Positions 40,199-63,361 are shown, counted from the first letter of the stretch. The stretch is DNA of 64,000 nt from Candidatus Collierbacteria bacterium GW2011_GWA2_42_17 (GCA_000998275.1 LCDA01000002.1:46708-110707); one strand, 5' to 3'. Translations and numbers: made by a program. Notes: generated by a model not told the origin, from the letters alone.

Positions 40199-40243
40199 TT
40201 TCTAAAACAAAATTTAATACATCACTCTTGTGTATTTTTTCTG

Positions 40244-40326: not shown

Positions 40327-40343
40327 ATTACCCTTTTACAGGG

Positions 40344-40416
40344 AGCCGTTGTTGAGACTCGAACTCAATACCTTTCCCTTACCAAGGGAATGCTCTGCCA
40401 GGTGAGCTACAACGGC
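40344..40416 (-). tRNA. tRNA-Thr (anticodon GGT)
   Basis: Acceptor GCCGTTG/CAACGGC, D-stem GCTC/GAGC, anticodon loop TTGGTAA, T-loop TTCGAGT. Confidence 0.85.
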
Positions 40417-40441
40417 TAATTAACCAACACCATATTTTACC

Positions 40442-41074: not shown

Positions 41075-41133
41075 ATGTCAAATCATTTATGGGTATCAAA
41101 AACAAGATTGTAAGGTAAAATATAGATTGTTGC

Positions 41134-41210
41134 GCCACCTTAGCTCAGTTGGCTAGAGCACCTGTTTTGTAAACAGGGGGTCCTGGGTTCGAATCCCAGA
41201 GGTGGCTCCA
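41134..41210 (+). tRNA. tRNA-Thr (anticodon TGT), CCA encoded
   Basis: Acceptor GCCACCT/AGGTGGC, anticodon loop TTTGTAA, T-loop TTCGAAT, 3' CCA. Confidence 0.85.
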
Positions 41211-41214
41211 ATTA

Positions 41215-41907
41215 TTACTTAAAATTCGACCCTACAATGACCATCAAATCGACTGCCGGCTTATCCTCGGCGGACTGTGTGGCCACTTCTCCTCCAACCA
41301 ACTGAGCCAGTTGTATAGCCTGACTTCCCCATTTTCCGGTTAAGTCAATAACTAATGTTTTCTGATAATCTGTCGTCTTGGCGGTCGCTTTTGCCGTTAC
41401 CGAAATTCCCAAAACCTTTTTATCTTTTATTCTCTGTTCCAATGTATTTGTTAAACCCACCGTCTTCGTCCCGTTTACCAATACCACCTTCAAAGGATTA
41501 TTCACGTCTGTCCCTGTAATAGTCAGGGAACCGTCCCCAATATTCACTGGTACCACATCTACAATTACATTTTTTGTCGGGTTGTAAATGTATGCCTTTT
41601 GCGCAATCGAATATATCAATATTTTATCCCCATTCTCCGCCTTGGCAAAAACAGGCTGATCCTTAAGCTTTTCCTTATCCGTCACTGTCGCCATCACCGG
41701 TTCTTCTCCTTCGGGTAGAATGACCAACTTACCCACCAAAGCGACAACTTTTGCCGTCTCTTCTTTAGCAATCTTATTTGGATCTTCTTTCAGCACCTGT
41801 ATCTCTGTTTTTAATTGCCGATTTTCTTTTGAAAGTTTTATCAATCCCCCTATACCTCCAAAAACGATTAACAACACCGCCGCTAAGATAACTTTTCGTT
41901 TGTCCAT
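41215..41907 (-). CDS. LytR_C (LytR/CpsA/Psr C-terminal) domain-containing membrane-anchored protein
   Basis: N-terminal TM plus coiled-coil, and a C-terminal region with a LytR_C-like pattern (KVVLVNGTKTVGLTNTL...KTLVID.....DLMVIVGSNF). Confidence 0.5.
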   Translation of the reverse strand: MDKRKVILAAVLLIVFGGIGGLIKLSKENRQLKTEIQVLKEDPNKIAKEETAKVVALVGKLVILPEGEEPVMATVTDKEKLKDQPVFAKAENGDKILIYSIAQKAYIYNPTKNVIVDVVPVNIGDGSLTITGTDVNNPLKVVLVNGTKTVGLTNTLEQRIKDKKVLGISVTAKATAKTTDYQKTLVIDLTGKWGSQAIQLAQLVGGEVATQSAEDKPAVDLMVIVGSNFK

Positions 41908-41953
41908 ATGTTTGTAATTAATTTAACTAAAAAACCACAATATTTCAAGTGTT

Positions 41954-47275: not shown

Positions 47276-47277
47276 TT

Positions 47278-49263: not shown

Positions 49264-49427
49264 GATTTATATATTTGTAACAATTTTCACAAATCCCTAC
49301 AATCACTCTAAGGTAAAAAACAACATCTGTCAAATCAGAAACCCTCTCCCTCTACGTACGGGTCCCAGCTCTGGAGTATTTTGTGTTAAAATACCAGTTG
49401 CTTCATATCAATACCAAAGACTAAAAC

Positions 49428-49601
49428 ATGGCAAAAAAAGGACCAAGACAAAGTATGGGTTTAAAATGCTCCAAATGCGGGCACTTCAACTATATCTCTG
49501 AACGAAACAAAACCAACACCCCCGAAAAACTTGTCATCAGCAAGTACTGCCGTACCTGTCGTGAGCATACCGACCATAAAGAGGTTTCCAAATTAAAGTA
49601 A
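49428..49601 (+). CDS. rpmG: 50S ribosomal protein L33; absent from the ORF track because it is under 60 aa
   Basis: Hand translation gives MAKKGPRQSMGLKCSKCGHFNYISERNKTNTPEKLVISKYCRTCREHTDHKEVSKLK, i.e. the L33 C4 zinc ribbon and KYC..C..HT.HKE motif. The rpmG-tRNA-Trp-secE-nusG context is classic. Confidence 0.9.
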   Translation: MAKKGPRQSMGLKCSKCGHFNYISERNKTNTPEKLVISKYCRTCREHTDHKEVSKLK

Positions 49602-49727
49602 TCCTTCTTCTCTTGTTTTCAACTCTTCCCTATTTATTAGGTAATTTTTTGCACCACTGCATCAAACTGATATATAATCCATCATCTGAACTAAGTTCTG
49701 TACTTTGAATTTAATGGGGAGGCAGCG

Positions 49728-50285
49728 ATGTCATACTGGATATGCTACGAAAACTTGGACCGAACAAGCGGTCATTCGGGTATTCGAGGTCGGGATAATC
49801 TAGAAAGTAAATCCGTGTCTCGACGAAAAGATAGTGTAAAAGAATACCGAAAAAACCCCAACAAGCGGATCATCGCAGAAGGAATTACTCACGATGAGGC
49901 TCTGAACTTAATGGCCCTCACGCCGGAAATCTGTCGACTAACCACCACCGTCGATGATATCTTCGGTCAGTTCAACAGGATTGATAAAGAAACTAAAAAC
50001 GTTATCTCCTTCCTGTTCGACGCCTACGAACAAATCATCGAAGATCGAAAACTCAAAGAAAAAGCCGGTATTACTCCGACAGGAAACTATCTTGATGTTT
50101 TTGTCGATGTCCACTCGGGCAATACGGGGAAATATCTCATCTTTCGCAAGATGAACACTCTTTTTGATGTCCTTCCGGACGGAACCATCGTCGATCTCAA
50201 AGAAGCCATTTTGGCTTTAGGTAAGGAAATCATGGCTGTCGCCCTTGAAAATCAAATTACCATCTGGAATGAAGAAAATAACTAG
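49728..50285 (+). CDS. Hypothetical protein, paralog A (185 aa)
   Basis: Homologous to 50507..51016 (MSYW/MSYY start; IIAEGITHDEALNLMALTPEICRLTTTVDDI against VIAEGISEGKSYQIIQLTPEICLLTAAIEKI). Followed by a terminator. Confidence 0.55.
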   Translation: MSYWICYENLDRTSGHSGIRGRDNLESKSVSRRKDSVKEYRKNPNKRIIAEGITHDEALNLMALTPEICRLTTTVDDIFGQFNRIDKETKNVISFLFDAYEQIIEDRKLKEKAGITPTGNYLDVFVDVHSGNTGKYLIFRKMNTLFDVLPDGTIVDLKEAILALGKEIMAVALENQITIWNEENN

Positions 50286-50292
50286 CTTACAA

Positions 50293-50315
50293 ACCCCGCC
50301 TCAGCGGGGTTTTTA
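50293..50315 (+). terminator. Rho-independent terminator (ccccgc-ctca-gcgggg + T5)
   Basis: Seen directly downstream of paralog A. Confidence 0.8.
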
Positions 50316-50430
50316 GTGCCAAGGAAACCCCGGACCAATGCGAGGCGAAATCCGAGTCTGTCCGGAAAGGACGTCATTTATACCCACGATCTAGTCGTAA
50401 CGGCCACTGTTCCGAAATAATTCATTCAAA

Positions 50431-50452
50431 TCCGCCAATCGGCGGGTTTTTG
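50431..50452 (+). terminator. Rho-independent terminator (ccgcc-aatc-ggcgg + T5); the same hairpin as at 51024
   Basis: Hairpin plus T-tract inside the paralog A-B intergenic region. Confidence 0.7.
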
Positions 50453-50506
50453 TATCTAAGGTGTATAATCCACACCAAAGAACCTTAAATTTCAAAGGAG
50501 AAAATC

Positions 50507-51016
50507 ATGTCATATTACGTTGTCTTTGAGTACACAACCAAAGCCGGAGGATACGCAGGGATACGAACAGCGATTGATTACCAAAACAAGGAGAATTTTA
50601 CTCTCCTCAACCCTACTTTAAACGGCCTATCTACAGTCATTGCTGAGGGTATATCAGAAGGAAAGTCCTACCAAATAATTCAACTCACCCCAGAAATATG
50701 TCTTCTAACGGCTGCTATCGAAAAAATTGATCTCGCCACCAATGGCAGTTTCAACTTTGATAAAAGTCACGGTTTTCTACGAGAAGCATGGGAAACAATC
50801 TACAACAATCGTTTGAATAACAAGGCTGACGGTCTTGTTGTAAAACCTGACTTTCAAGTGGTTGAACCCACTCAAGAATATTCCAATAAAAACCATCTCA
50901 TGATATTTGTCAAAAACAAATTTACCAACACCGACGGGTCAATTGACGATAATCTTCAAATCGCTATCATGGACATTGAAGGTGAAATATACAAAATGAC
51001 TGAAACAAAGCACTAG
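50507..51016 (+). CDS. Hypothetical protein, paralog B (169 aa)
   Basis: RBS ggagaaaatcATG. Paralogous to 49728..50285. Confidence 0.55.
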   Translation: MSYYVVFEYTTKAGGYAGIRTAIDYQNKENFTLLNPTLNGLSTVIAEGISEGKSYQIIQLTPEICLLTAAIEKIDLATNGSFNFDKSHGFLREAWETIYNNRLNNKADGLVVKPDFQVVEPTQEYSNKNHLMIFVKNKFTNTDGSIDDNLQIAIMDIEGEIYKMTETKH

Positions 51017-51023
51017 ACACAAA

Positions 51024-51045
51024 CCCGCCAATCGGCGGGTTTTTT
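51024..51045 (+). terminator. Rho-independent terminator (cccgcc-aatc-ggcggg + T6)
   Basis: Seen directly downstream of paralog B. Confidence 0.8.
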
Positions 51046-51076
51046 ATGCTCAATCTGCTAAAATACGTATAACCCT

Positions 51077-51147
51077 AGGGGTGTAGTTCAATGGTAGAAT
51101 CCGGGTCTCCAAAACCTGTGATGAAGGTCCGATTCCTTCCACCCCTG
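51077..51147 (+). tRNA. tRNA-Trp (anticodon CCA); 3' CCA not encoded
   Basis: Acceptor AGGGGTG/CACCCCT, D-stem GTTC/GAAT, anticodon loop CTCCAAA, T-arm GAAGG-TCCGATT-CCTTC. 71 nt. Confidence 0.85.
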
Positions 51148-51215
51148 CAAATTATTTAGCCTCAAAAAACTATATCAGACTATCCTAGACCCTGAGGGAA
51201 TACTGAACATTGAAG

Positions 51216-51770
51216 CTATTTCTTACTAAAAATCTTTTCAAATTCTGAGATTCCTTTAAGAGTGGCCAAGTCGATAATCAAAGCTTTAGCATCTTCTATA
51301 CTTTTCCAGCCAGTTGTATAAAACTCCGTATCTAATAAAGCTTGGTCAGGTTTAAAATCCACCTCCGAGAGAGGAATAAAATACCAAATATCAAAATGTT
51401 GCTTACATTTTATTGTCGGGTGTTGAATTGGATTTATTGTCAGCAATTTTGGCTTACCAATACTTTGTAAATCCACCTTTACGACACCCCACTCTTCACC
51501 CATTTCTCTTTCCAGAGCTTCTTCAGGAATCTCCCCTTTATCTATATGACCACCATTAAAAAGCCAAAGACCTGACTTCTTGTGGTGTCCAACAAAAACT
51601 TTTCCTGCTTCGCGGTCAAAACCTGCAAAACAAACACAAAAATGAGAGTGTGGATTTTCGTCTCTGGTTAGTTCACCCTCTTTAGCTCTACTTATATATT
51701 CTGAGGCAACGGGCGAAGCTGGATGTTCCGAAGCGATTTCATTTATCCTTTCGGCAAGTCTTTCGGTCAT
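51216..51770 (-). CDS. NUDIX hydrolase
   Basis: Nudix box GGHIDKGEIPEEALEREMGEEWGV (GX5EX7REUXEEXGU). 184 aa. Confidence 0.8.
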   Translation of the reverse strand: MTERLAERINEIASEHPASPVASEYISRAKEGELTRDENPHSHFCVCFAGFDREAGKVFVGHHKKSGLWLFNGGHIDKGEIPEEALEREMGEEWGVVKVDLQSIGKPKLLTINPIQHPTIKCKQHFDIWYFIPLSEVDFKPDQALLDTEFYTTGWKSIEDAKALIIDLATLKGISEFEKIFSKK

Positions 51771-51939
51771 AACGTAATTTTAACTTTTCAATATATTGAA
51801 AGCAATTACTGGTTGAGGAGCAATAAAGGTTTCCAGAAAGTATATGCCAATGCATGATATGCGAAGAATTTTTTTGTTTATTATGGTTACGAAGGAATCA
51901 AAACTGTAATTAATATTACTTTTCTGCTAGGATTTAGGT

Positions 51940-52860
51940 ATGATCGAGTCCTTATTCTTCACCTCCTCAGACGATTCAAATCTGGCTCAAAACATCATTG
52001 CTACCGTTCCCCTTCTACGCCAAGGGAGGTATCGCTTTGGTCACTTTATTGATGGCGAAGTCATGTTCTATCTCGACGAACCGGTCAAGGGCAAGCGCTG
52101 TTTTGTCCTTGGACATACCGGACCTCCCGCCGACAACCTCCTCTCCATGTTTACCATCGTCAACACCCTCAAGCTCAACGGTGCTAAATCCATAGTTTCG
52201 GTCATCCCCTATCTCGGTTACGCCAGATCCGACCGTGACAAACCCCTACAACCTATAAACTCCAGACTGTTTGCTGGTTTCCTCAAACAGGCTGGTGCTT
52301 CCAAAGTCATCTGCCTTGATCTTCATAGCGAACTAAACAAAAGACACTTTACCATCCCCATCACCCATCTCTCTGCTCTACCTCTCATGGCTGACATCTA
52401 TCAATCATTGAGTATTCCCAACTTGACCATTGCCACTCCGGATCTCGGTGGTTTGAATCGTGCCAAACTTTTTGCCAAAGCTATGGGGATCAAAGACATC
52501 GTTGTCATCGAAAAATATCGTCCCTCCGTCCAAAGCGCTGTCTCTTTAAAAATTACAGGCGACGTTAACAATAAAAATGTCATTCTGGTAGATGACATGA
52601 TTCAAACGGGTGGTACTCTTCTCGCCGCCGCCAATCTTCTACGATCTAGAGGAGCCAAAGATCTCTACGTCGCCGTCACTCACTGCATCTATCAGAGTAA
52701 AGGTATCAATCTACTAACTTCTACATCACTTTTTAAGAAAATCCTCATCACTAACTCTCAAGAACCAATCGAAAAACTTCCCCCTAAAGTCTATATTCTC
52801 GACATCTCTCCGCTCCTCTCCAAAGCTATTGCCCGTATCACCTCTTCGTCCGTTACCTGA
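51940..52860 (+). CDS. prs: Ribose-phosphate pyrophosphokinase (PRPP synthetase)
   Basis: Motifs YLGYARSDRD (consensus YxGYARQDRK) and the PRPP-binding VILVDDMIQTGGTL. Confidence 0.85.
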   Translation: MIESLFFTSSDDSNLAQNIIATVPLLRQGRYRFGHFIDGEVMFYLDEPVKGKRCFVLGHTGPPADNLLSMFTIVNTLKLNGAKSIVSVIPYLGYARSDRDKPLQPINSRLFAGFLKQAGASKVICLDLHSELNKRHFTIPITHLSALPLMADIYQSLSIPNLTIATPDLGGLNRAKLFAKAMGIKDIVVIEKYRPSVQSAVSLKITGDVNNKNVILVDDMIQTGGTLLAAANLLRSRGAKDLYVAVTHCIYQSKGINLLTSTSLFKKILITNSQEPIEKLPPKVYILDISPLLSKAIARITSSSVT

Positions 52861-53435
52861 GGAAAGTTTCTATAATATGCCCCTACTGCTCCTCGATAAT
52901 CCTTATCGATATTCAAACAAACTATCTCCTCCACCACTCCTTTAAGTTTTTCTTCAAACTCCGCTGGCATCATTGGCAAAGCTGCAATGATTTTATGTGG
53001 GTTTTTACTTCGCAGTTCTTCAATGGCCATCAAGTAAGTCAATCCCGTGGCCACTCCATCATCAACCAAAATTACCGTTTTCCCTTTAACACTCAGATCT
53101 TTCCTTCCCCGAAGATACAGCTTCTCTCTCCTTTCAATCTCCTGTTTTTCTCTCTCCACCTCTTTCTTTAACCAATTTTGATCAAGTCGGTTCTTTTCCT
53201 CCTCCGTACACCGTAACCCGCTCTTGGAAACCGCACAGACCGCATACTCCCTGTTATAAGGATGTCCGATCTTCCGCACCAATACAAGCCCCAAGGGAAA
53301 CTTTAACTCACGGGCAATTACCTCCGCCAAAATCACTCCGCCACGAGGGATCGCCACTAAAACACAGTCTTCTTTTTGAAACTTTACCAAGCTCAAGGCC
53401 AATCTTTTACCAGCATCTACCCTGTCGTCAAACAT
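52791..53435 (-). CDS. Type I phosphoribosyltransferase-domain protein
   Basis: PRPP-binding motif VILVDDGVATGLT. 214 aa. Its 3' end overlaps prs by 70 nt; the genes are convergent. Confidence 0.7.
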   Translation of the reverse strand: MFDDRVDAGKRLALSLVKFQKEDCVLVAIPRGGVILAEVIARELKFPLGLVLVRKIGHPYNREYAVCAVSKSGLRCTEEEKNRLDQNWLKKEVEREKQEIERREKLYLRGRKDLSVKGKTVILVDDGVATGLTYLMAIEELRSKNPHKIIAALPMMPAEFEEKLKGVVEEIVCLNIDKDYRGAVGAYYRNFPQVTDEEVIRAIALERSGEMSRI

Positions 53436-53470
53436 ACTACCTCCAGTATATACAAAACTCCACTAATTCA

Positions 53471-54715
53471 TCAAAGCTCCGTCATCCCCAACGCCTCCGG
53501 TATACGCACGTTTTTCGGTACCACCACAAACATTAATCTTTTTTCATAAACATACTTTTTGCTGCCATCTGGCAGCTTATCTACCCTGTCATCCCACCAA
53601 CGATTCAAGAACTGCTGAATCATATAAACTCGATCTTCCGCGTGATAATGACCGTATGGGTCCATCATTCGGATACTATCGTTTGCCCTATCCACATCCG
53701 TAACCACGCAGTAATGTCCGCTGTCACCTTTGCACATTTCCTCTTCATCTTCCATCTCTTCCCCTTCCTCGTCCGGATAGTCCTCATACGAATCACTCCC
53801 AAAAATTCCCTGCCAATCAACACCCACCGGATAGTTGTAAACACGTACCATCTGCTCGATGTCAAACAGGCTGGCATCTCGTTTCGCCCAAAGACGCATC
53901 CCGGGATAAGAATTTTTCACTGCCGTGGCCAAGAGCTCGATCGACATCCCGTTTTTTAAGGCTAATTCTCTTGTCGTTGCCGACTCGACCAGCTTATCCT
54001 GACTGGTCTCAATACCGTAATGCGACAACAAGATTTGCAAAGTAGCTGGACCACAAAAAGCCGGGTTCTCTTGACGAACTCTCGGTAAACTATCGATTGT
54101 CATTTTTTTCTCCAGCACCTCTTCCACTACCACTTCCTTGTCCATTACCAGATCTCTCTCCCACAAACCGTTATTTTCCAAATCAAAACCTCTAATCATC
54201 TTGAATCCTGCCTTCTCGGCCACCTTGATTGAGGGAATATTTCCGCTTTCAATCTCCGCCAACACTTTCAAACCATCCATCATCCACGGTTTCTTCTCCT
54301 GGAGGTATTCAAATACTAGCTTGCAACCAATTTCTATTGCTGGAGTAATCAAACCAGCCGGTGCTCCAGGACGCTTAGCATAGCTCATTTCCAACCTCCC
54401 CTGAACTATCTTTGATGGATAAAAATAAATAAAGCCGTGAACCCGACGATTAGCCACCTCTTCCGGCAAGTCGGCAATGGCAAACAAAAATGTATTTCCC
54501 TCACCTTTTTCGTCCATCCACTTTTGGTAATTCCAAATATTCAGGTTATCGACATTGTCCATCCATCTTTGCACCTCGGAACTCTCCACTATCTGGATCA
54601 GATCCCGCAAGTCACGACTGTCTTCACACTCAAAAAAGCGGACTACATAACCCTTTCCATCCTTCATAAAATACTTTTTGTCGCGATTCTCCATAACCCT
54701 GATTTTACCAAACAA
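53471..54715 (-). CDS. Fusion protein: an N-terminal GNAT-like domain plus a C-terminal papain-like C39_2-type peptidase domain (414 aa)
   Basis: The N-terminal about 200 aa are paralogous to 55911..56591 (GNAT-like). The C-terminus carries NPAFCGPATLQILLSHYG (a C39-like catalytic Cys context) and DSGHYCVV (candidate His), then an acidic linker. Confidence 0.55.
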   Translation of the reverse strand: MFGKIRVMENRDKKYFMKDGKGYVVRFFECEDSRDLRDLIQIVESSEVQRWMDNVDNLNIWNYQKWMDEKGEGNTFLFAIADLPEEVANRRVHGFIYFYPSKIVQGRLEMSYAKRPGAPAGLITPAIEIGCKLVFEYLQEKKPWMMDGLKVLAEIESGNIPSIKVAEKAGFKMIRGFDLENNGLWERDLVMDKEVVVEEVLEKKMTIDSLPRVRQENPAFCGPATLQILLSHYGIETSQDKLVESATTRELALKNGMSIELLATAVKNSYPGMRLWAKRDASLFDIEQMVRVYNYPVGVDWQGIFGSDSYEDYPDEEGEEMEDEEEMCKGDSGHYCVVTDVDRANDSIRMMDPYGHYHAEDRVYMIQQFLNRWWDDRVDKLPDGSKKYVYEKRLMFVVVPKNVRIPEALGMTEL

Positions 54716-54735
54716 TCGTCCCCTACCCGATCTGA

Positions 54736-55878
54736 CTAGATTGTTCTGGCGTATTTCGACAGTAAACTGGCCAAGACCTCATCAAAACTGATTCCATACA
54801 TCGCGAGCACCTCGGTAAATGGCAAGCCCATATCCGGACCAAAGGCTGTGTTCGGATTTGAGTCGGTGAAATATGGAATATTTGTCTCGGAATCCACACG
54901 CACATCAAACTTAGCATAGTCCTTGTGTTGCAAGCCACGGAAGGCACGAATTGCCAGTTGAGAAATTTTACTGGCCAAAGGTTCTTCCACACTTTTGTAG
55001 GTATAGGCTTTGATATCATCGTAAGACTCAAAGCTGGTGAAATAATGCTTTCCGTCCGTCTTTTTCCTAAATACTTTTTGGCCCATAAAAACACTCTTTT
55101 TTGCCCCGTCATCAAATACCACCACTGTTACCTCCGGTCCATCAATAAATTGTTCCACAATAACCGGGATCTTATACGTCGACACCATCTTATTCACCTT
55201 CCTCTGAGCGTCCTTAATCGTTTCCTTGACCGCATGGTTATCGATGCCTACACTTCCGCCACTTTCATTTAACTTGACAATTAAAGGCAGTCCCAAGTCA
55301 TCACGAATTGCCGTGTTTGATCTACGAATGAACTGAAACGCCGGAGTAGGAATGCCGTAGGCCATCAAAAGTCTCTTGGTCAAATTTCGATTATTTCCGA
55401 TCACCATCCCCTCCATACCGGCACCGGTATAGGGCAAGTTGGACAACTCCAAAGCTGCTGGTACCGATGTCTGCAGTCGATCCATCCCTTTTAGGGTGTC
55501 CACCAGGTTCAAAACTAACGAAGGCTTATCCACTAAAAGGTTAGTCAAGAAATATGGATCACCAGGTAGAGTTTTAACCTGGACACCCATTTTCTCAATC
55601 CTCTCGGCGACCTCTTTGGCTCTGTCTTCCACTTCCACCTCGGCATAATAAGCCTCTTCTGTCGGGAACATCTCTCTTTCAACGTGAGAATATGCCACTA
55701 CCACAAGACCAAGATTCTTTAGAGCCTCTTTGTCGACTCGAAGTCTTGGTTTTTTATGTGCTTTAGGTGTGATTGACTCCTGTTTTTCCTCTGACTTTAC
55801 CTCTTGCTCGTGAAGTTCTGCCTCTTTTAGTTGCCGTTCTTTCTTTTTTATTCCCAACAAATCTTTTATTCCAATCAT
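54736..55878 (-). CDS. ddl: D-alanine--D-alanine ligase-family ATP-grasp enzyme
   Basis: ATP-grasp motifs LIVKLNESGGSVG and YFTDSNPNTAFGPDMGLPF (Ddl C-terminal region). 380 aa with an N-terminal charged extension of about 45 aa. Confidence 0.7.
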   Translation of the reverse strand: MIGIKDLLGIKKKERQLKEAELHEQEVKSEEKQESITPKAHKKPRLRVDKEALKNLGLVVVAYSHVEREMFPTEEAYYAEVEVEDRAKEVAERIEKMGVQVKTLPGDPYFLTNLLVDKPSLVLNLVDTLKGMDRLQTSVPAALELSNLPYTGAGMEGMVIGNNRNLTKRLLMAYGIPTPAFQFIRRSNTAIRDDLGLPLIVKLNESGGSVGIDNHAVKETIKDAQRKVNKMVSTYKIPVIVEQFIDGPEVTVVVFDDGAKKSVFMGQKVFRKKTDGKHYFTSFESYDDIKAYTYKSVEEPLASKISQLAIRAFRGLQHKDYAKFDVRVDSETNIPYFTDSNPNTAFGPDMGLPFTEVLAMYGISFDEVLASLLSKYARTI

Positions 55879-55910
55879 GAATTCAGCTTAGCATTTTCCC
55901 CTGACTAAAA

Positions 55911-56591
55911 TCAACCGTTAATTTTCTTCTTTTCGATATCTCTAAGCTTTTTGTAATCCAAAACGTACAAGGCGCTCATCTCTTTTGAATCTTCTTCATA
56001 AAAATGTCGGCCCCTTCTCTCAAAACCACATGCCTCTACTACCCTCATTGAACCAATATTACTCTCGTCAATAAAACAAAAGACAAATACCCCCGTTCCC
56101 CCTTTGATCCTATCAAGTCTTTTTAGCTCTAAACAGGCTTGTCTCACCGCACTGGATATCTGTCCGCCAGGAGCCTTTGGTAGCTTGGCAAAACTAATCT
56201 CAAAAATTTTATTATCATTAACCTCGTTCTTTTTAATTAAACCCGCTCTCACGATCCTGTTAATGATTTTCTTCTCTTCACTGCCTGCATAAAGATATAC
56301 AAACCCCTGAACCTCCCCAATCTCACTGGCTTGATCTTCTCCAAAAATCTTGTCCGTGCCCGACACCGCAAATAGGTAATATCGTCCATAAGCTCCTTTT
56401 TCATCCGCCCATTCATAACGATCTTTTTTAGACATCCCGGCCACACTATCCATCATCTCTTGCACCTCACGGTGATCGACAATCTTCCTCAGTCGCAACA
56501 TATCTTCTTTACGTCCGGAATCAAAAAATCTAATTTCTACCTTCTCACCTGGGTATTTTTTTAGTTTTAGGTCATTTTTATTCATCTCCAC
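55911..56591 (-). CDS. GNAT-family acetyltransferase-like protein; paralog of the N-terminal domain of 53471..54715
   Basis: Collinear similarity: EIRFFDSGRKEDMLRLRKIVDHREVQEMMDSV against VVRFFECEDSRDLRDLIQIVESSEVQRWMDNV, GFVYLYAG against GFIYFYPS, AKLPKAPGG against AKRPGAPAG. Confidence 0.55.
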   Translation of the reverse strand: MEMNKNDLKLKKYPGEKVEIRFFDSGRKEDMLRLRKIVDHREVQEMMDSVAGMSKKDRYEWADEKGAYGRYYLFAVSGTDKIFGEDQASEIGEVQGFVYLYAGSEEKKIINRIVRAGLIKKNEVNDNKIFEISFAKLPKAPGGQISSAVRQACLELKRLDRIKGGTGVFVFCFIDESNIGSMRVVEACGFERRGRHFYEEDSKEMSALYVLDYKKLRDIEKKKING

Positions 56592-56689
56592 ACTAGATTA
56601 TCACATCCGCTAAACATTTTGCGCTTGCTTAATTCGAAAACCAATATACAATTCACCACAAGCACTCTAAAAATCTAAAAGGAGGTAAC

Positions 56690-57412
56690 ATGGCCGTCCA
56701 TTTTCTTGCTTCTTTTCTTGACAAAGCTTCCGGTCTCTTTAGTAAGAAGTCTCTGCCGTCGACAATCGAACTCTACGACCCCATTACTGTTAGTCGACCC
56801 GATGTCGAGTTTCGAGTTCTCTCCTCTCTCGCTAAACAAAATGTCTATTTCATCGACCTGGACACGACAAACTACATCGACGGACTGATCTATCTGCCTT
56901 CTCTCGGTTTGACGCTTACTCCCCCTCCCCCTCAAAAAGCCGCTCGCAGTAATTTGGGTTTCTTAAATCTGGAAACCAAACGGGAAACAAGCTCTCCCTC
57001 CAACCCGAACGTAGCCGAGGTTGATGCTGTTTTGTACTTCGAGTATGAGGGTCGGGAATGCAAAACAGGCTTACTTGATAACGGACTTGCTTACCTGTTC
57101 TTTGTCAAAATCTGGAATGACCTTGACTTCATCATCTGGGAAAAAATCCTCGAAGAAGTTGTCAGGGATCTAACTCTTGATTTTGAAGGGTATCTTCTTC
57201 CCAGGGTAAACTTCACGGTAGCCACCACCTTTATTCCCCACAAACCCTCAGAGCCCAGTAAGTTAATAATCAATCGTCAAGACGACAACTCCGACGCCTC
57301 ATTTGCCGTATCCAACCACACGATTGGCACCCTGGAAAACAGTGACGGGTTTGACGACGATGACGACGATGAAGAATACGAAGAATTAAAAAAACCTAAA
57401 CCCCGACACTAA
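56690..57412 (+). CDS. Hypothetical protein with a poly-Asp/Glu C-terminal tail (240 aa)
   Basis: RBS aaaaggaggtaacATG and the C-terminal DDDDDDEEYEELKK. No family match. Confidence 0.5.
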   Translation: MAVHFLASFLDKASGLFSKKSLPSTIELYDPITVSRPDVEFRVLSSLAKQNVYFIDLDTTNYIDGLIYLPSLGLTLTPPPPQKAARSNLGFLNLETKRETSSPSNPNVAEVDAVLYFEYEGRECKTGLLDNGLAYLFFVKIWNDLDFIIWEKILEEVVRDLTLDFEGYLLPRVNFTVATTFIPHKPSEPSKLIINRQDDNSDASFAVSNHTIGTLENSDGFDDDDDDEEYEELKKPKPRH

Positions 57413-57494
57413 TCGGGGTTTTTCTTTATCTCCGCATTGCGATAATACCAAACCAAGGGTACAATCTCACCAAGCACACTAAAAAGGAGGTCGC

Positions 57495-57716
57495 ATGATC
57501 GTCTTAACTCCACTGTTGTTCTGGATTTCTGTTTCCTTCGGTTTTCTCTGTCTCACTGGTGTCTACTTCTTCGAGAAGTGGTATCTCAAGGTCAACAGAC
57601 CCACCCCCAAACAAGAACTGATTCATAAATATCTTTTCCCCTTCCTGTTCTTGTGTTTTTTGGTCTTCGGCTTTACCCCAATCTTCTTCTGGTTCCTTTT
57701 ATTGCCCTTCCACTAA
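57495..57716 (+). CDS. Small hydrophobic membrane protein (73 aa)
   Basis: RBS aaaaggaggtcgcATG, two TM helices, and a terminator at 57724..57750. Confidence 0.5.
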   Translation: MIVLTPLLFWISVSFGFLCLTGVYFFEKWYLKVNRPTPKQELIHKYLFPFLFLCFLVFGFTPIFFWFLLLPFH

Positions 57717-57723
57717 GTGTTAC

Positions 57724-57750
57724 GCCCCGATTTGCATCGGGGCTTTTTTT
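57724..57750. terminator. Bidirectional rho-independent terminator (gccccgat-ttgc-atcggggc + T7)
   Basis: A perfect 8-bp stem followed by ttttttt. Lies between the convergent genes 57495..57716 and tsaC. Confidence 0.8.
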
Positions 57751-58354
57751 ATACCTCCACCACAATACTCCCTTGCCTCAAAATCTTTATTTCCTTCCCT
57801 GTCGTATCCACAATTGTTGACGGCTGACGCAGAAGTAACTCTCCCGCGTCAATAAATAAATCAATTAATTTTTGTTTTTCTTTAGGTACCGTTTCCAAAA
57901 ACTCTTTCAGACTTTTCGCTGTCATCGCCCCGGAAACATTGGCCGACGTCGAGGTAATTGGTTTTCCAAAAATATCAATTATCTCCAAAATATCCTTACT
58001 GTCCGGATTTCGCAGTCCTAACGTATTAGTTTCTCCCTGCGCTTTTTTTGACACCTTGTTTTTACTTGTGGCTACAATAGCCACCGCACCCGGCCAGTAT
58101 TTCTGCACCACTTTCTTACCCAAATCACTCAAAATTACATACTCTTCCGCCATCGCTACCCCACTCACCGCTACCAACACTGGCTTGTTTCCTCGCTCAC
58201 CCTTAAACTTCCATAACTTCTCCAAAGCCATCTCGGAAGTTGCATCCACTCCCAGTCCGTAAACCGTTTCGGTTGGATAAACTACCAAACCGTTGGCTTT
58301 AAGTACTTTTACTACCTCGTCTGTCTTTAATTGTGAAAGCAAAACAGTTTTCAT
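57749..58354 (-). CDS. tsaC: L-threonylcarbamoyladenylate synthase (TsaC/YrdC/Sua5 family)
   Basis: YrdC motifs (VYPTETVYGLG, TSTSANVSG). 201 aa, so the short YrdC form. Confidence 0.8.
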   Translation of the reverse strand: MKTVLLSQLKTDEVVKVLKANGLVVYPTETVYGLGVDATSEMALEKLWKFKGERGNKPVLVAVSGVAMAEEYVILSDLGKKVVQKYWPGAVAIVATSKNKVSKKAQGETNTLGLRNPDSKDILEIIDIFGKPITSTSANVSGAMTAKSLKEFLETVPKEKQKLIDLFIDAGELLLRQPSTIVDTTGKEIKILRQGSIVVEV

Positions 58355-58429
58355 CTATCGTATTTTAACCCAAGACACTTAAACCACAGATTATTTTTTT
58401 GAAACCAACAATCTGTTAATATCTAATCA

Positions 58430-59434
58430 ATGCAAAAAATTGTTACCTTAGGTGGTGGTACCGGTGCGCCCATTATCACCCAAGCCCTTCTCCTCGCCGG
58501 GTACAAAAATCTTTCTTGTATTGCATCAAGTATGGACTCTGGCGGTAAAACAGGCATTATCCGCTCCGACGAACGCGACCAAGTTATCGCCATCTCCGAT
58601 CTTCTTCGCACCCTCATTTCCCTAATCTCCAGTACCAATCATAAAAAAAATATCCAGGCTTTTACTGATCTCGTCTCCTTCACCGATGGCCGCCAAAGAA
58701 ATCTTGGCTACACTCTCTACTACGCCCTTCTGGAGATGTATCAAAACGACTTCATTAAAGTCCAAGAACATCTCGAAAACCTTCTGGGTATCAAGTTTGA
58801 CGGCACCGTCATTCCGGTAACTACCGACTCCAGCAACATCTGTTTCGAAACAAAAAACGGCACTGTTTTCCGGGGCGAGCACGAGCTGGACAAACAATCC
58901 ATGTCCAAAAACTCCATTACCGATCTTTGGCTGGATCCGGATGTGCCGGCTACTCCTCAAGCTATCGAGGCCATCGAAAACGCCGACTTCATCATTTACT
59001 GTCCCGGTAGTATTTATGGTTCAATCATTAGCACCTTTCTCCCTGTAGGTATCAAGGAAGCTTTAGAACTCTCCAAAGCAAAAAAAATTCTCATTACCAA
59101 CCTTGTCTCAAACAGAAATCAAACCCATCATTTCACTCCGGAAAAATATTTAAAAACCTTCCGTCGCTTCACCGGTCTTTCCCAACCCTTTGACATCATC
59201 ATTACTCCCCACATTTCTCAAAAAGCTTTCGAGAAAAAATACTCGAGGGTGGCCTGGTCGTATGCCCTCGAACACTCCCATTTTCTTGGCTGGTCAAAAA
59301 CCGAACTCAAATCTATTTCCAACAAAGGTATCAAAGTATTAACTTCTGATATTATCTCTATCACCCCTCAACTCAACCGCCTTCGCCATGATCCCCAAAA
59401 ACTCTCCAAACTTCTCAAAACGATCATCAAATAA
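58430..59434 (+). CDS. CofD/YvcK-family protein (UPF0052, gluconeogenesis-factor-like)
   Basis: N-terminal IVTLGGGTGAPI glycine-rich loop and 334 aa, collinear with YvcK/CofD. Confidence 0.7.
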   Translation: MQKIVTLGGGTGAPIITQALLLAGYKNLSCIASSMDSGGKTGIIRSDERDQVIAISDLLRTLISLISSTNHKKNIQAFTDLVSFTDGRQRNLGYTLYYALLEMYQNDFIKVQEHLENLLGIKFDGTVIPVTTDSSNICFETKNGTVFRGEHELDKQSMSKNSITDLWLDPDVPATPQAIEAIENADFIIYCPGSIYGSIISTFLPVGIKEALELSKAKKILITNLVSNRNQTHHFTPEKYLKTFRRFTGLSQPFDIIITPHISQKAFEKKYSRVAWSYALEHSHFLGWSKTELKSISNKGIKVLTSDIISITPQLNRLRHDPQKLSKLLKTIIK

Positions 59435-59468
59435 AAACCCGCCATTTCTGACGGGCGAACTATCTTTC

Positions 59469-59726
59469 CTAATTGGTTTTTACTAAATCAACGACTACCG
59501 AACCAGGAGGTAACATCGAAGCTTCAACCGGAAACAACTTCATCCGATCCTTTACCTCCACTCGGAATAGCTTGCCGTCTGGACGACGAACATAATCTCC
59601 ATTTTGACAGTGATATTCCCTGTCTTTAGTCTGGAATACTCCCTCAATCCCGAAAGAAAAGGTATCCATCACCATTTCTCCTTTCACTGAATGTGCGATA
59701 TTTATGCGATTATACAACAAAAACAT
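59469..59726 (-). CDS. Hypothetical protein (85 aa)
   Basis: Short ORF. No family match. Confidence 0.3.
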   Translation of the reverse strand: MFLLYNRINIAHSVKGEMVMDTFSFGIEGVFQTKDREYHCQNGDYVRRPDGKLFRVEVKDRMKLFPVEASMLPPGSVVVDLVKTN

Positions 59727-59944
59727 ATACTCTCGTGCATCATATTAAAGAAAAATATTCTGCACCTCAGCATCAAAAAAAATAATTTTTGATCAACTCA
59801 CTTTGTATCTTCTACCGCCGGTTCACCCCTACAACGGGTGCATCCTTAAACTACCTTGCTGACCTCAAGGCGTTTCTACAACTCTAAAAGACACTTCATG
59901 CTTCGACCTACCCTACTCAATTACTGTCCGCTTGTTAAGGATTC

Positions 59945-59995
59945 TATCTGTGTTTAAAACGATGGTCACGTAGACACAGATTTTGTTTTTTTGCC
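59945..59995 (+). terminator. Rho-independent terminator-like hairpin (atctgtgt ... acacagat + tttgttttttt) inside the long secE upstream region
   Basis: An 8-bp stem and about 20-nt loop followed by a T-rich tract. Seen directly. Confidence 0.5.
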
Positions 59996-60203
59996 CTGAC
60001 CTTGACACTTGGGATCTTTCCCCAAAACGTAAAGGTGGGTGAACTGTCCCGACACTGGAAATGTCGAGAACTCCGTCCCCCGAAAGATAGCTTGTAGAGG
60101 AAAAACCTCCCAATCTATCAAAGTTCAGAGCAACCTCATTTAATCACGTCATGAAAACTCGTGTCAAGTTTGCACAACTCGAATACCTCAAATCGACCCT
60201 TCC

Positions 60204-60407
60204 ATGTTAAAATACCTTGATATGCCTCGTCCACTTGAATATATACGCTCGATAAGACTAGAAATGAAGCAGGTAAAATGGCCGTCTCACCAGACTGCCT
60301 TAAAGATGACCATCCTCGTCATCATTACTAGTCTAGCTGTAGCGTTTTACTCAGGAGGACTGGACTATCTCTTTACGACCATGCTTGCCAAAGCACTAAA
60401 TCGCTAA
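60204..60407 (+). CDS. secE: Preprotein translocase subunit SecE
   Basis: 67 aa with a single C-terminal TM, immediately upstream of nusG. Confidence 0.85.
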   Translation: MLKYLDMPRPLEYIRSIRLEMKQVKWPSHQTALKMTILVIITSLAVAFYSGGLDYLFTTMLAKALNR

Positions 60408-60408
60408 A

Positions 60409-61026
60409 ATGAAACTAAAAGAAGACAAAGCCAAACAAATTGATGAACTTGTGCCCAAAACACAGGATCCTAATCACGTCGTCATTACCGACAACGCCCC
60501 TCCCTCCGCCAAGTGGTACGTCGTTCACACCCAATCTGGTCACGAAAACCGTGTTTTGATTACACTAAAAACCAGAGTAATCTCCATGGGTCTTGAGAAC
60601 TTCATCTACGAAATCCTCATTCCAACTCAAGAAAAGATCAAAATCAATAAAGGTAAGAAAACCACCATCAAAGAAAAGCTTTTCCCTGGTTATATGCTCG
60701 TTCGTATGATTGTCTCCGATGACTCCTGGCTCGCTGTCCGCACCACCCAAGGTGTTACTGGCTTCGTCGGCACCGCCGATCAACCCACCCCTCTTCCCGA
60801 AAACGAAGTTAAGGCCATCACCGCCTTTGGCCAGCAAGCTGCTCCCAAGTTCCAAGCCGCCTTCACCATGGGTGAGGCCGTCCGCATCATTGAAGGACCT
60901 TTCACCGACCTCCTCGGAACCGTCTCTGCCATCGACGACGCCAAGGGCAAGGTCACAGTCTTGGTCAGTATTTTTGGACGCGAAACTCCCGTCGAGCTCG
61001 ACTTCCTCCAAATCTCCAAGATATAA
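60409..61026 (+). CDS. nusG: Transcription termination/antitermination factor NusG
   Basis: NGN domain (WYVVHTQSGHENRV) and a KOW C-terminus (GEAVRIIEGPFTDLLGTV). 205 aa. Confidence 0.9.
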   Translation: MKLKEDKAKQIDELVPKTQDPNHVVITDNAPPSAKWYVVHTQSGHENRVLITLKTRVISMGLENFIYEILIPTQEKIKINKGKKTTIKEKLFPGYMLVRMIVSDDSWLAVRTTQGVTGFVGTADQPTPLPENEVKAITAFGQQAAPKFQAAFTMGEAVRIIEGPFTDLLGTVSAIDDAKGKVTVLVSIFGRETPVELDFLQISKI

Positions 61027-61090
61027 GGGCTTTCTTGACACTCTTTTCTCTTCCTGTCATATTTAAGGTAGTCCCCCAACGGGATGTGTC

Positions 61091-61426
61091 ATGAAAAACT
61101 TAAATAGTGAAGAAACACTCTGGGTAGTCCTTCCAATTCTTCTTGTAGTTGGTATTCTCATTGCCAGCATCATCATTCTCCCTAAAACCCAAACCGAAAC
61201 TCGCAGCAAAGCCTCTGAACCCACCGTAGTTCCAACGATCGTCGCCACCCCGACCGTAACCCCTCTATCTCCCGAACGTCCCGAAATCATCTGCTCCGCC
61301 CTGTACTCTCCGGTCTGCAGCCAAAATGGCGTTACCTATCCCAGTGAGTGTGAGGCCAACAACGCTGGTGTCACGGCCTTTACCTCAGGCGAGTGTCCCC
61401 CGACCCAAGCCGCACCACCCAAGTAA
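61091..61426 (+). CDS. Membrane-anchored Kazal-like (atypical 4-Cys) protease-inhibitor-domain protein
   Basis: N-terminal TM and a PT-rich linker. C-terminal C-x7-C-x10-C-x14-C with the Kazal hallmarks Y.PVC...G.TY...C, spacings matching Kazal C2-C3 and C3-C4. Confidence 0.6.
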   Translation: MKNLNSEETLWVVLPILLVVGILIASIIILPKTQTETRSKASEPTVVPTIVATPTVTPLSPERPEIICSALYSPVCSQNGVTYPSECEANNAGVTAFTSGECPPTQAAPPK

Positions 61427-61534
61427 TTTCTCCGTCACTCTAATTCTCTCAGCTACCAACTGAGTTTTATTTGACTTATAATCTTTTTTCAGGTATGATG
61501 TCCCTCAATCCCGCACCCTAAAAGGAGTAATCCC

Positions 61535-61870
61535 ATGTTAGATTGGTTCAAATCAAGACTAATTGTTGTTCGAATCATCTTCTTTGTCCCCATCCCCGTC
61601 ATTTTAGCAATCTGGGCCTGGGGAATTCCTGCCGTCGTAATCTCATTCATCCTAACTGTCTTTTTTGCTACCGCCGTTACGGCATTTGAATCCAAAGACA
61701 TCTTTAATATTTGGTGTTTCTGTGCCTCCACTTCCTCCATTGTGGCCTTGTACTACATTGCATCAACAAATCCGGCAGCACTTCCGGGAGCACCATACCT
61801 CGAAGGTTTCTTGTACCCTCTTTTGTATCTGATTACAGCTATTGTTCTCTTTCCAAAAATTAAAGAGTAA
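61535..61870 (+). CDS. Hypothetical polytopic membrane protein (111 aa)
   Basis: RBS aaaaggagtaatcccATG, three to four TM helices, and a terminator at 61882..61906. Confidence 0.5.
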   Translation: MLDWFKSRLIVVRIIFFVPIPVILAIWAWGIPAVVISFILTVFFATAVTAFESKDIFNIWCFCASTSSIVALYYIASTNPAALPGAPYLEGFLYPLLYLITAIVLFPKIKE

Positions 61871-62054
61871 CCTCACGCTATTATCCCGCCTTAAAGGCGG
61901 GATATTTTGCACCTTCTATGATAGAATACTTCTACCTCGGCCAGTCTGAGGGAGCTTACCAAAAGTAAAGCGAAATAGGTATCTCTACTAACTAATGCAT
62001 CAAACCTATTCAACTTTCTTTTTGTGTGGCTAATATTAAATACATAAAATAAAC

Positions 62055-62480
62055 ATGGCAAAAAAAGTCAAAGCCATCCTGAAGTTAAATCTTCCGGCTG
62101 GCTCCGCCAATCCCGCTCCTCCCGTTGGTCCTGCATTAGGTCAGCACGGTGTCAACATCATGGAGTTCATTACCCAGTACAATGCTAAAACCGCCGAAAT
62201 GCGTGGTCAGGTCATTCCTGCACTGGTTACCATTTTCGAAGACAGATCTTTCAAATTCGAGCTCAAAACCCCTCCCGTCACCGCTCTCATCAAACAAGCT
62301 CTTAATATTAAACTTGGTTCCGGCACTCCTAACAAAAACAAGGTTGGTGAAATTACTCTGGAACAAATCAAAACCATTGCCGAAAAAAAACTCGCCGACA
62401 TGAATACCAATGACATCAACTCCGCTATGGAGATGATCAAAGGTACTTGTAAATCAATGGGTATTACTATCAAAGAATAA
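62055..62480 (+). CDS. rplK: 50S ribosomal protein L11
   Basis: L11 N-terminal [21 protein letters not shown] motif. 141 aa. Confidence 0.92.
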
Positions 62481-62485
62481 CTATT

Positions 62486-63361
62486 ATGGCTAAAAAAATA
62501 ATCTGGGACAACCTATACACCGACCTACCTACACACGTCGCCGTCGCTCTTCGTACCGCTCGCTTGAAGCCGGAACAAATCATCCTCAAAGAAGATGGTG
62601 AGCTCATGGCCATCGAAGGCATCAAGGAAGAGGACCTTGACTCCATAAGAGCCATCTACAACGCCGACTCCATAGCTATTCCTACCAAGGAAGAGGTCAA
62701 AGAGGCCGAAGCCAAGGAAGAGGTCATAGAAGAAGCCAAAAAAAATGCTAGGAAGGTTGTTGCCCGCAAACGCAGCAATAAATACAAGACCATGGCTAAA
62801 GCTATTAAAAAGGATGAACTCTACTCGGTTGCCAATGCCGTCGCCATCCTGGCCAAGCTTTCCAAAGCTTCCAAGCTCAAAACCGTCGAGCTTCACCTTA
62901 ACACGCGTGAAACAGGCTTAAGAGGCGAGCTTAAACTTCCTCACTCTACCGGCAAAGATATCAAAATCGCCATTTTCTCTGATGAAGTTGCTGCTAAAAT
63001 TACCGCCAATACCATCGACTTTGACATTCTTCTCTGTACTCCTGCCGACATGCCCAAAATCGCCCGTTTTGCCAAGATTCTAGGTCCCAAGGGCCTTATG
63101 CCTAACCCCAAGTCCGGTACCGTTACCGAACACCCGGAAGAAAGAGCTAAACAACTTGCTGGAGGTGGCACTTTACCTTACAAGACCGAAGCCAAGTTTC
63201 CCATCATTCACCTCAATTTAGGCTCCATCACCCAAAAGAATGACGACTTGGTAGATAACATCAACGAAGCCATAAAAAGCATCAACGTCACGAAAATCAA
63301 ATCCGCTTATCTCTCCTGTACCCACACTCCTTCCGTCAAGCTTGCCATAAGCAATATCTAA
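62486..63361 (+). CDS. rplA: 50S ribosomal protein L1 with a charged N-terminal extension of about 80 aa
   Basis: L1 core from about residue 95 (ELYSVANAVAILAK...GPKGLMPNPKSGTV). 291 aa against a typical 230 aa. Terminator at 63388..63412. Confidence 0.88.
   Translation: MAKKIIWDNLYTDLPTHVAVALRTARLKPEQIILKEDGELMAIEGIKEEDLDSIRAIYNADSIAIPTKEEVKEAEAKEEVIEEAKKNARKVVARKRSNKYKTMAKAIKKDELYSVANAVAILAKLSKASKLKTVELHLNTRETGLRGELKLPHSTGKDIKIAIFSDEVAAKITANTIDFDILLCTPADMPKIARFAKILGPKGLMPNPKSGTVTEHPEERAKQLAGGGTLPYKTEAKFPIIHLNLGSITQKNDDLVDNINEAIKSINVTKIKSAYLSCTHTPSVKLAISNI

Follow-up and report, generated by a model that had tools for sequence, protein, structure and literature searches.

The ribosomal gene cluster rpmG, tRNA-Trp, secE-nusG and rplK-rplA of Candidatus Collierbacteria bacterium GW2011_GWA2_42_17, as it stands in a 64-kb stretch of DNA (LCDA01000002.1:46708-110707; hereinafter the window), is spread over 14 kb. 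The comparison with related loci allows us to conclude, with good confidence, that this is an ancestral cluster split unit by unit, in which gene flux is limited to the junctions between the units. The host is an uncultured groundwater bacterium belonging to the Microgenomates within the Candidate Phyla Radiation (CPR). The cluster may be regarded as a chain of units (tRNA-Thr/Tyr, rpmG, tRNA-Trp, secE-nusG, rplKA and rplJL) whose junctions would have been opened in Collierbacteria and, patchily, across the Microgenomates and the CPR, with the genes inside a unit still abutting. The genes filling the junctions appear to be mostly old and native, including the ten-gene block from prs to unk85, the Kazal-like gene and unk185. 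On top of this ancestral layout, single genes would continue to turn over at the junctions, the busiest place most probably being the first base pairs after tRNA-Trp.

Position of the breaks in the cluster

Features of the window were called from six-frame open reading frames (ORFs) and with Pfam, NCBIfam, ARAGORN and Rfam. We gathered 98 related loci and mapped the proteins and tRNAs of the window onto them. The set comprised six loci of the same species, the sister species L007 and L095, the Collierbacteria-like loci L008, L087-L094 and L096, the more distant L097 and L098, about 56 loci of other CPR bacteria, and 22 Chloroflexota loci as outgroups. The relatives were compared as 10-kb flanks rather than as complete Collierbacteria genomes, and the gap statistics exclude L095-L098, which were fetched afterwards.

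All members of the cluster were found by Pfam and ARAGORN on one strand (plus) and in the canonical order. These are rpmG, encoding ribosomal protein L33 (49428-49601; Pfam PF00471, E=5e-16), tRNA-Trp(CCA) (51077-51148; ARAGORN), secE (60204-60407; Pfam) and, one base further, nusG (60409-61026; Pfam), then rplK (62055-62480) and, five bases further, rplA (62486-63361), the latter two recognised by both Pfam and NCBIfam. The original prediction had given the same members, order, orientation and 14-kb spread, together with the interposed genes, and the Pfam, ARAGORN and Rfam searches confirmed this description.

The members are, nevertheless, not contiguous. The gaps measure about 1.5 kb from rpmG to tRNA-Trp, 9.1 kb from tRNA-Trp to secE and 1.0 kb from nusG to rplK, vs. 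medians of 21, 137 and 74 bp in the Chloroflexota outgroups. With two more breaks beyond the three first listed, the cluster has five inter-unit breaks of 0.5-9 kb. One of the additional breaks consists of about 8.2 kb of minus-strand genes between tRNA-Thr(TGT) (41134-41210, plus strand; ARAGORN, Rfam) and rpmG. The other lies beyond the window end, where three genes (for an SLT-domain protein and two unknown proteins) separate rplA from rplJ-rplL in L002 and same-species contigs; on the same-species contigs, rpoB and rpoC were not found within 4.6 kb after rplL. The break upstream of rpmG is filled in the window by the genes for a LytR_C-domain protein, a 1773-aa repetitive protein and a 661-aa membrane protein with HTH_17 and dCache domains (41215-49263, minus strand; Pfam). 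The whole trio is common to L095, and the 1773-aa/661-aa pair is also present in L090; the L007 locus takes in just the end of the 661-aa gene. In L091 and L097, the tRNAs and rpmG are not separated by any of the three, and the upstream tRNAs directly abut rpmG in L097, L023 and L025.

The gap statistics clearly showed two classes of spacing. Inside the units, the secE-nusG gap was 4-56 bp (median 13 bp) in 10/10 Collierbacteria-like loci, vs. a median of 208 bp and a maximum of 415 bp in Chloroflexota; the rplK-rplA gap was 5-35 bp (median 17 bp), vs. a median of 50 and a maximum of 177 bp; and the rplJ-rplL gap had a median of 39 bp and never exceeded 56 bp, vs. a median of 97 and a maximum of 214 bp. 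Between the units, distances above 1 kb were found in all Collierbacteria-like loci that could be scored: 4/4 from tRNA-Trp to secE, 7/7 from nusG to rplK and 4/4 from rplA to rplJ, the Chloroflexota medians being 137, 74 and 298 bp, respectively. Other CPR bacteria were intermediate, with more than 1 kb between tRNA-Trp and secE in seven loci out of eight and more than 0.5 kb between nusG and rplK in 12 out of 54. In other Microgenomates orders, the genes filling the interval between tRNA-Trp and secE are nearly all locus-specific. Taken together, the data show that within-unit gaps are tight everywhere. Between-unit gaps, by contrast, stand open in every Collierbacteria-like locus, vary among the other CPR bacteria and are closed in Chloroflexota. 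The units would be held intact by selection, acting on co-transcription or on translational coupling. The locus as such is broadly conserved, and genes parting rplKA from rplJL are known in Bradyrhizobium and Actinomyces (PMC12993453).

Since the window comes from a metagenome-assembled genome, one might suspect that the spread order arose during assembly or binning, for example through a chimeric contig joined at the tRNA, the more so as Ns interrupt the same-species scaffold L001 ahead of rplK. However, the same NusG occurs on 24 contigs of independent assemblies, and the gene order is identical in 6/6 of those shown (ENA, NCBI, JGI). L002 matches the window with 100% identity across 13.6 kb, and the junctions are reproduced in the sister species L007 and L095. 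The independent assemblies thus share the arrangement, which leaves an assembly artefact with next to no probability. In the whole collection, 62 blocks have contigs with the same NusG, and many independent assemblies, from Rifle groundwater and from elsewhere, show the identical arrangement. As for L001 (ANAN16-1 scaffold_1742), an apparent 155-bp insertion upstream of its rplK was discarded, as it consists of an N run (11594-11693) with duplicated edges, i.e., a scaffold gap.

In many bacteria, tuf adjoins the tRNA-Tyr/Thr genes. Here, the tRNA-Tyr/tRNA-Thr(GGT) pair (40243-40417, minus strand; ARAGORN, Rfam), which together with tRNA-Thr(TGT) represents the upstream tRNAs of the canonical cluster, is accompanied by a 401-aa ORF (38993-40198). 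We considered this ORF as a candidate tuf and rejected it because it had no Pfam match, thus indicating that the canonical place does not hold the EF-Tu gene. When the region 39-64 kb was scanned with Rfam at E<=1, only the four tRNAs were returned, with no ribosomal leader and no other RNA.

Several side observations concern the cluster genes and their upstream neighbours. The rplA product is 291 aa long, and about 90 aa at its N-terminus form an extension outside the Pfam and NCBIfam models; the L1 homology covers approximately the C-terminal two-thirds, the best stretch starting at about residue 165, and in L087-L091 and L093 the length stays at 289-294 aa. One and the same 17-nt sequence, AAACATGGCAAAAAAAG, lies over the start codons of rpmG (49424-49440) and rplK (62051-62067), whose products both start with MAKK; this may reflect a common translation-initiation context or simply chance. 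The 1773-aa protein (encoded within 41954-49263) is Gly/Thr/Ser-rich and repetitive, with no Pfam domain, and its gene is the sole strong tetranucleotide outlier in the window. Its 661-aa partner combines HTH_17, a multi-pass membrane part and dCache, and the pair stands upstream of rpmG in L090 and L095.

The block between tRNA-Trp and secE

The longest break of those first listed is taken up by eleven genes on both strands (51216-59726). The first, on the minus strand, encodes a NUDIX hydrolase (51216-51770; Pfam) and is considered in the next section. The other ten run from prs to unk85 (51864-59726): prs, encoding ribose-phosphate diphosphokinase (51940-52860, plus); a phosphoribosyltransferase gene (52791-53435, minus; Pfam); a gene for a fusion of GNAT with a C39-like peptidase (53471-54715, minus; Pfam); a gene for a Ddl-like ATP-grasp ligase (54736-55878, minus); a second GNAT gene (55911-56591, minus; Pfam); unk240 (56690-57412, plus); TM73, encoding a 73-aa membrane protein (57495-57716, plus); tsaC/Sua5 (57749-58354, minus); a YvcK/CofD-like gene (58430-59434, plus; Pfam); and unk85 (59469-59726, minus). 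A 477-bp non-coding spacer (59727-60203) then leads to secE; it has no Rfam match and lies inside the stretch kept in L007.

The original prediction had viewed this 9-kb stretch as an insertion, and the entire 51.2-59.7 kb could accordingly be imagined as a genomic island or a prophage remnant integrated at the tRNA-Trp 3′ end. It does begin right after the tRNA and carries genes on both strands, including several unknowns, and what appears to be a true integrative element uses tRNA-Trp in the sister genome L095. The comparison with the sister species, however, speaks against such an origin. The L007 locus, whose NusG is 99% identical to that of the window and whose local DNA is 88% identical, aligns across window positions 51864-61027 in the same order and with no gene-sized indel, and in L095 the homology restarts at window position 51905, just upstream of prs, so that the element of L095 lies upstream of prs and does not replace the block. 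Parts of the block recur in more remote relatives as well: the Ddl-like/GNAT-C39/GNAT module close to the cluster in L089, L090, L096 and L097, thus even where NusG is 56% identical; prs and the phosphoribosyltransferase gene in L090, L093 and L094; and tsaC with the YvcK-like gene beside secE in L088.

The composition of the block proved ordinary. For the interval 51151-59727, 68% of equal-size windows matched or exceeded the strand-symmetrised tetranucleotide distance and 50% matched or exceeded the dinucleotide delta*, and its GC content (0.433) nearly equals the window mean (0.435). The same holds for strand asymmetry, which is pronounced in this genome. On the plus strand, the GC skew amounted to -0.275 for the window as a whole; it was -0.28 in genes, whichever strand they occupy, and -0.24 outside ORFs, with third-codon-position values of -0.53/-0.37. 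About 69% of the coding bases lie on the G-rich minus strand, and secE-nusG-rplKA lies on the C-rich one. A skew of -0.17 to -0.25, with nusG on the plus strand, was found in 10/10 Collierbacteria-like loci (L007, L008, L087-L094). With so strong a genome-wide skew, a recently acquired foreign or inverted segment should stand out, and the 9-kb block does not: without the NUDIX part, its skew is -0.300, at the 38th percentile. Should the leading strand be the G-rich one, the highly expressed genes secE-nusG-rplKA would be transcribed head-on to replication.

The gene content and the repeat searches point in the same direction. Both prs and tsaC, which score above the NCBIfam cut-offs, serve core housekeeping functions. 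No recombinase, integrase or transposase domain was detected by Pfam in the eleven block proteins, in agreement with the original prediction, which had likewise found no integrase or transposase. A 13-mer of the tRNA 3′ end with up to three mismatches gave 20 matches vs. 20.9 expected, i.e., the chance level; a repeat search over 49.2-62.1 kb found no pair linking the tRNA with the distal boundary at 59.4-60.2 kb; and a 26-mer search of the window with up to six mismatches returned the tRNA itself as the only match. The search for att-like direct repeats of the tRNA 3′ end thus yielded nothing above chance. A 12-nt tract, ttcacccctaca, had been noted as loosely resembling the tRNA-Trp 3′ end, probably by chance; the match counts bear out the latter judgement, and the tract lies at 59822-59833, inside the spacer that precedes secE and 10 nt away from the position originally given (59832-59843).

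Hence neither an integrase, nor a distal tRNA repeat, nor a deviant composition, nor a presence/absence polymorphism distinguishes the block, which makes an island or a prophage remnant very improbable. The results indicate that the 9-kb block is an old native part of the genome of this lineage. Conserved order in relatives and the lack of a compositional difference from the flanks had been named in advance as signs against insertion, and both were obtained; this part of the original prediction is thus not supported.

Some features of the block deserve mention in their own right. The N-terminal half of the GNAT-C39 fusion has a paralog in the second GNAT. The ATP-grasp protein encoded by 54736-55878 reached at best 103 bits with the NCBIfam Ddl models vs. 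a cut-off of 243, which is why we name it merely a Ddl-like ligase; it bears a 60-aa Lys/Glu-rich N-terminus. The ligase recurs together with a C39-like or GNAT-C39 partner in L089, L090, L096 and L097. Given the low Ddl score, the three-gene module 53471-56591 may serve peptide or cell-wall modification rather than act as a housekeeping Ddl.

Gene turnover at the junctions

Comparison of the window with L007 revealed exactly four gene-sized indels, all of them at junctions: window segments 50315-51051, 51151-51863 and 61399-61915, and a 648-bp segment specific to L007. The second of these starts at tRNA-Trp. The tRNA-Trp genes of the window, L007 and L095 share one sequence as far as ...CCACCCCTGC and part from each other 1-2 nt further; an alignment of seven loci diverges at the same place, so that the tRNA-Trp 3′ end forms the left edge of the variable site. 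Three states follow it: 23 bp in L007, ahead of the common region upstream of prs, a 713-bp NUDIX cassette in the window (51151-51863, comprising the gene 51216-51770 and its flanks), and 9.35 kb in L095.

The NUDIX cassette, a putative mobile unit of a single gene, abuts the tRNA 3′ end and is not shared by all close relatives. Its GC content of 0.374 corresponds to the 0.7th percentile of same-size windows, and its similarity to a distant lineage exceeds that of core genes. Namely, the NUDIX gene of L097 and L098, two independent assemblies from different samples, is 84% identical to that of the window in both protein and DNA (over 623 bp), vs. 56% for NusG, 51% for rpmG and 36% for secE. 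In both loci, the NUDIX gene lies directly 3′ of their own, markedly different tRNA-Trp, on the opposite strand. Moreover, a 26-nt sequence, GATAGTTCGATTCTATCCACCCCTGC, is found 30 nt downstream of the L097 tRNA-Trp (10586-10611, minus strand), before the NUDIX gene, and likewise in L098. It corresponds to the T-arm and the acceptor 3′ strand of the Collierbacteria type, with five mismatches to the window tRNA and 12 to the tRNA of L097 itself. Read most simply, a segment of a donor, composed of the 3′ part of tRNA-Trp and the NUDIX gene, would have passed from a Collierbacteria-like genome into the L097/L098 lineage, i.e., that the cassette has probably moved horizontally.

A candidate agent of turnover at the tRNA-Trp site is found in L095. 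This locus is collinear with window positions 39970-50314 and tRNA-Trp, after which 9.35 kb of unique DNA follows (L095 10713-20060). An ORF of 515 aa on the minus strand (L095 10647-12194) overlaps the end of tRNA-Trp, and its product matches Resolvase (PF00239), Recombinase (PF07508) and Zn_ribbon_recom (PF13408), all above the cut-offs; it is thus a predicted large serine recombinase. The rest of the segment encodes HTH_36/DnaD_N-like, DUF5659, XRE-type HTH, DUF5677 and DUF4365 proteins and three large unknown proteins, those of 610 and 556 aa among them. Judging from these genes, the segment is a putative integrative element of unassigned type. Its assignment as a phage or a defence island was considered and dropped: it has no IMG/VR relatives, no PADLOC matches and no recognisable phage structural genes.

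It is well known that tRNA 3′ ends serve as attB sites for integrative elements. A tyrosine integrase is typical of tRNA-targeting islands, and large serine recombinases include phage-type serine integrases such as phiC31 or Bxb1 Int. As the L095 recombinase is of the serine and not of the tyrosine type, long att direct repeats are not to be expected. In the window, the NUDIX cassette has neither a recombinase of its own nor att repeats; the tRNA fragment was seen only in L097/L098 and the recombinase only in L095. These observations mark the 3′ end of tRNA-Trp as a probable hot spot of insertion in the lineage, with the first 0.7 kb as the variable unit, and site-specific recombinases targeting tRNA-Trp may drive the turnover there. 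The idea of a tRNA 3′ hot spot, raised in the original prediction, is therefore upheld for the first 0.7 kb, where the NUDIX cassette and the 9.35-kb element of L095 reside, and not for the 9 kb to which it was applied.

The slot between rpmG and tRNA-Trp shows turnover of another kind. It holds two plus-strand genes, unk185 (49728-50285) and unk169 (50507-51016), which are paralogs (29% identity, E=2e-13), as originally stated. Their family is nevertheless resident in this slot, where it varies in copy number: one copy in L007 and L095, two in the window and four tandem copies in L096 (917-3567). Orthologs of unk185 occupy the same slot with 70-75% identity in L007 and L095 and 54% in L096. 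The window-specific 737-bp segment 50315-51051, missing from L007 and L095, carries unk169, which is flanked by two 25-nt terminator hairpins (50427-50451 and 51020-51044) with 96% identity. The family (about 170 aa) has no Pfam model, unk185 included, and keeps the motifs M-Y-x-V-V-F-E-Y, G-G-Y-A-G-x-R and S-L-T-P-E-I-C-R-L-T. Homologs of unk185 were found in 11 clusters in a word-indexed search, and the family counts 127 representatives at 50% clustering. An AlphaFold2 (AF2) model reached a predicted local distance difference test (pLDDT) score of 93.8, and no solved structural relative of this model was found. The 2.4 kb from rpmG to the NUDIX gene (49428-51863) have a GC skew of -0.106, which, at the 99th percentile, is unusually weak. 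The same-slot genes of L091, L023, L036 and L037 were tried as distant homologs of the family and rejected (best E-value 0.14), and the spacer 50286-50506 was rejected as a decayed paralog, with zero tblastn matches below E=0.1.

The interval between nusG and rplK combines a conserved gene with changing ones. The Kazal-like gene (61091-61426, plus strand) matches Pfam Kazal_1 and Kazal_2 with 28.2 bits vs. a cut-off of 22.8 and 27.8 vs. 21. A recent insertion is not supported for this gene, which is kept in nine other Collierbacteria-like loci: tblastn matches were found downstream of nusG, and before rplK where the locus reaches that far, in L007, L008, L087-L091, L093 and L094 (9/9), with 36-94% identity. 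The translation contains the motif CSALYSPVCSQNGVTYPSEC and the C-x7-C-x6-Y-x3-C core; the domain has four cysteines instead of the six that form three disulfides, and the Pfam matches span about half of the domain models. With an N-terminal membrane anchor, a Pro/Thr-rich linker and the Kazal domain, the product is predicted to be secreted or membrane-anchored, and its gene is the conserved occupant of the interval. Around it, small genes differ. The window-specific 517-bp segment 61399-61915 holds the gene for a 111-aa membrane protein (61535-61870, plus strand), missing from L007 and without a homolog in any other locus; the 648 bp specific to L007 lie between nusG and the Kazal-like gene and encode a 160-aa membrane protein on the minus strand. 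The interval also contains genes of the ParE and Fic toxin type in L094 and an M50 peptidase gene in L089.

One might still argue that the arrangement is ancestral and fixed, without ongoing insertion, and that the differences are ancient rearrangements or losses. The conservation of the block and of the Kazal-like gene fits this view, and the NUDIX gene, for which 657 homologs were found, has homologs of graded similarity through the Microgenomates, so that it could have been native for long and then lost from L007 and L095. However, four gene-sized presence/absence differences, all junctional, have accumulated at a DNA divergence of 12%, and in L095 a recombinase-bearing element occupies exactly the NUDIX site. 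The NUDIX gene of L097/L098 combines 84% nucleotide identity (vs. 56% for NusG) with a foreign-type tRNA fragment, and toxin-antitoxin genes (ParE, Fic) lie in the nusG-rplK interval of L094. A fully fixed arrangement is therefore unlikely, though less so than an island of 9 kb.

Several points, on the other hand, weigh against an ancestral split cluster with flux at its junctions. The transcription units were assumed, the basis being only the analogy to E. coli and matches to consensus promoters and terminators. Gene order in the block varies among relatives, the Ddl and C39 genes lying upstream of tRNA-Trp in L089 and L090; since the order of shared genes relative to tRNA-Trp differs, the block has undergone rearrangement, and its present form is not ancestral in the strict sense. 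As the comparison covered 10-kb flanks, prs and tsaC may have further copies elsewhere, and the NUDIX gene may be relocated in L007 and L095 rather than missing. The indels can be read as gains or as losses; L007 and L095 may have lost a NUDIX gene whose place beside tRNA-Trp is the older state. No recombinase is present in the window, and the mechanism proposed for it is taken from a relative. Finally, the weak skew around unk185 may stem from amino-acid composition rather than from recent arrival, because unk185 is shared with three relatives. We nonetheless favour the ancestral cluster, split unit by unit, with turnover at its junctions.

Significance and comparison with known systems

The practical consequence is that a misannotation is averted, as the 9-kb stretch is not to be annotated as a genomic island. 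The locus provides a worked example of how a cluster held to be near-universal decays in reduced-genome CPR bacteria, and the confinement of the breaks to between-unit positions is what selection on co-expression predicts. The three-state site at tRNA-Trp, together with the cassette found across lineages, offers an entry point to horizontal transfer in CPR bacteria and to their mobile elements, which are poorly characterised. At the same time, breaks at operon boundaries and hot spots adjacent to tRNAs are already known, so that we deal with a well-resolved new instance in a poorly studied phylum and not with a new kind of feature, and nothing here is mechanistically new. Of modest interest are the three-state site with its serine recombinase, the NUDIX gene with its tRNA fragment, the four-cysteine Kazal-like gene and the model of unk185/unk169.

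As a tentative extension, to which we would give less than even credit, the junctions, above all that 3′ of tRNA-Trp, might be a lineage-wide landing pad of the Microgenomates serviced by elements with large serine recombinases, such that cassettes like NUDIX would hitch-hike between orders along with pieces of the donor tRNA-Trp, and the Kazal-like gene and the fold-orphan unk185/unk169 would be kept for the expression context of ribosomal genes.

The tRNA-Trp site resembles tRNA-targeted elements and islands in its three-state flank, in the recombinase gene abutting the tRNA in L095, in the low-GC cassette and in the tRNA 3′ fragment of L097. It differs from them in that the window carries neither a recombinase nor a repeated tRNA fragment, what varies is one gene of 0.7 kb, and the L095 recombinase is a large serine enzyme instead of a tyrosine integrase. 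With the large serine recombinases, the L095 protein shares the succession of Resolvase, Recombinase and zinc-ribbon domains and a position at the edge of a lineage-specific segment, but it lies outside the window and has no close relative on IMG/VR viral contigs; it may be viewed as a candidate integrase. The Kazal-like protein resembles Kazal-type inhibitors by its Pfam Kazal_1/Kazal_2 scores above the cut-offs and by the core signature, and departs from them by four cysteines in place of six, by matches to half of the models and by fusion to an anchor and a linker; it may be viewed as a putative inhibitor. Compared to the canonical tuf/rpmG-secE-nusG-rplKAJL-rpoBC locus, the cluster described here is non-contiguous, with no tuf between the tRNAs and rpmG and no rpoBC within 4.6 kb of rplL, but its genes retain the same order and orientation, and secE-nusG, rplKA and rplJL are still tight pairs.

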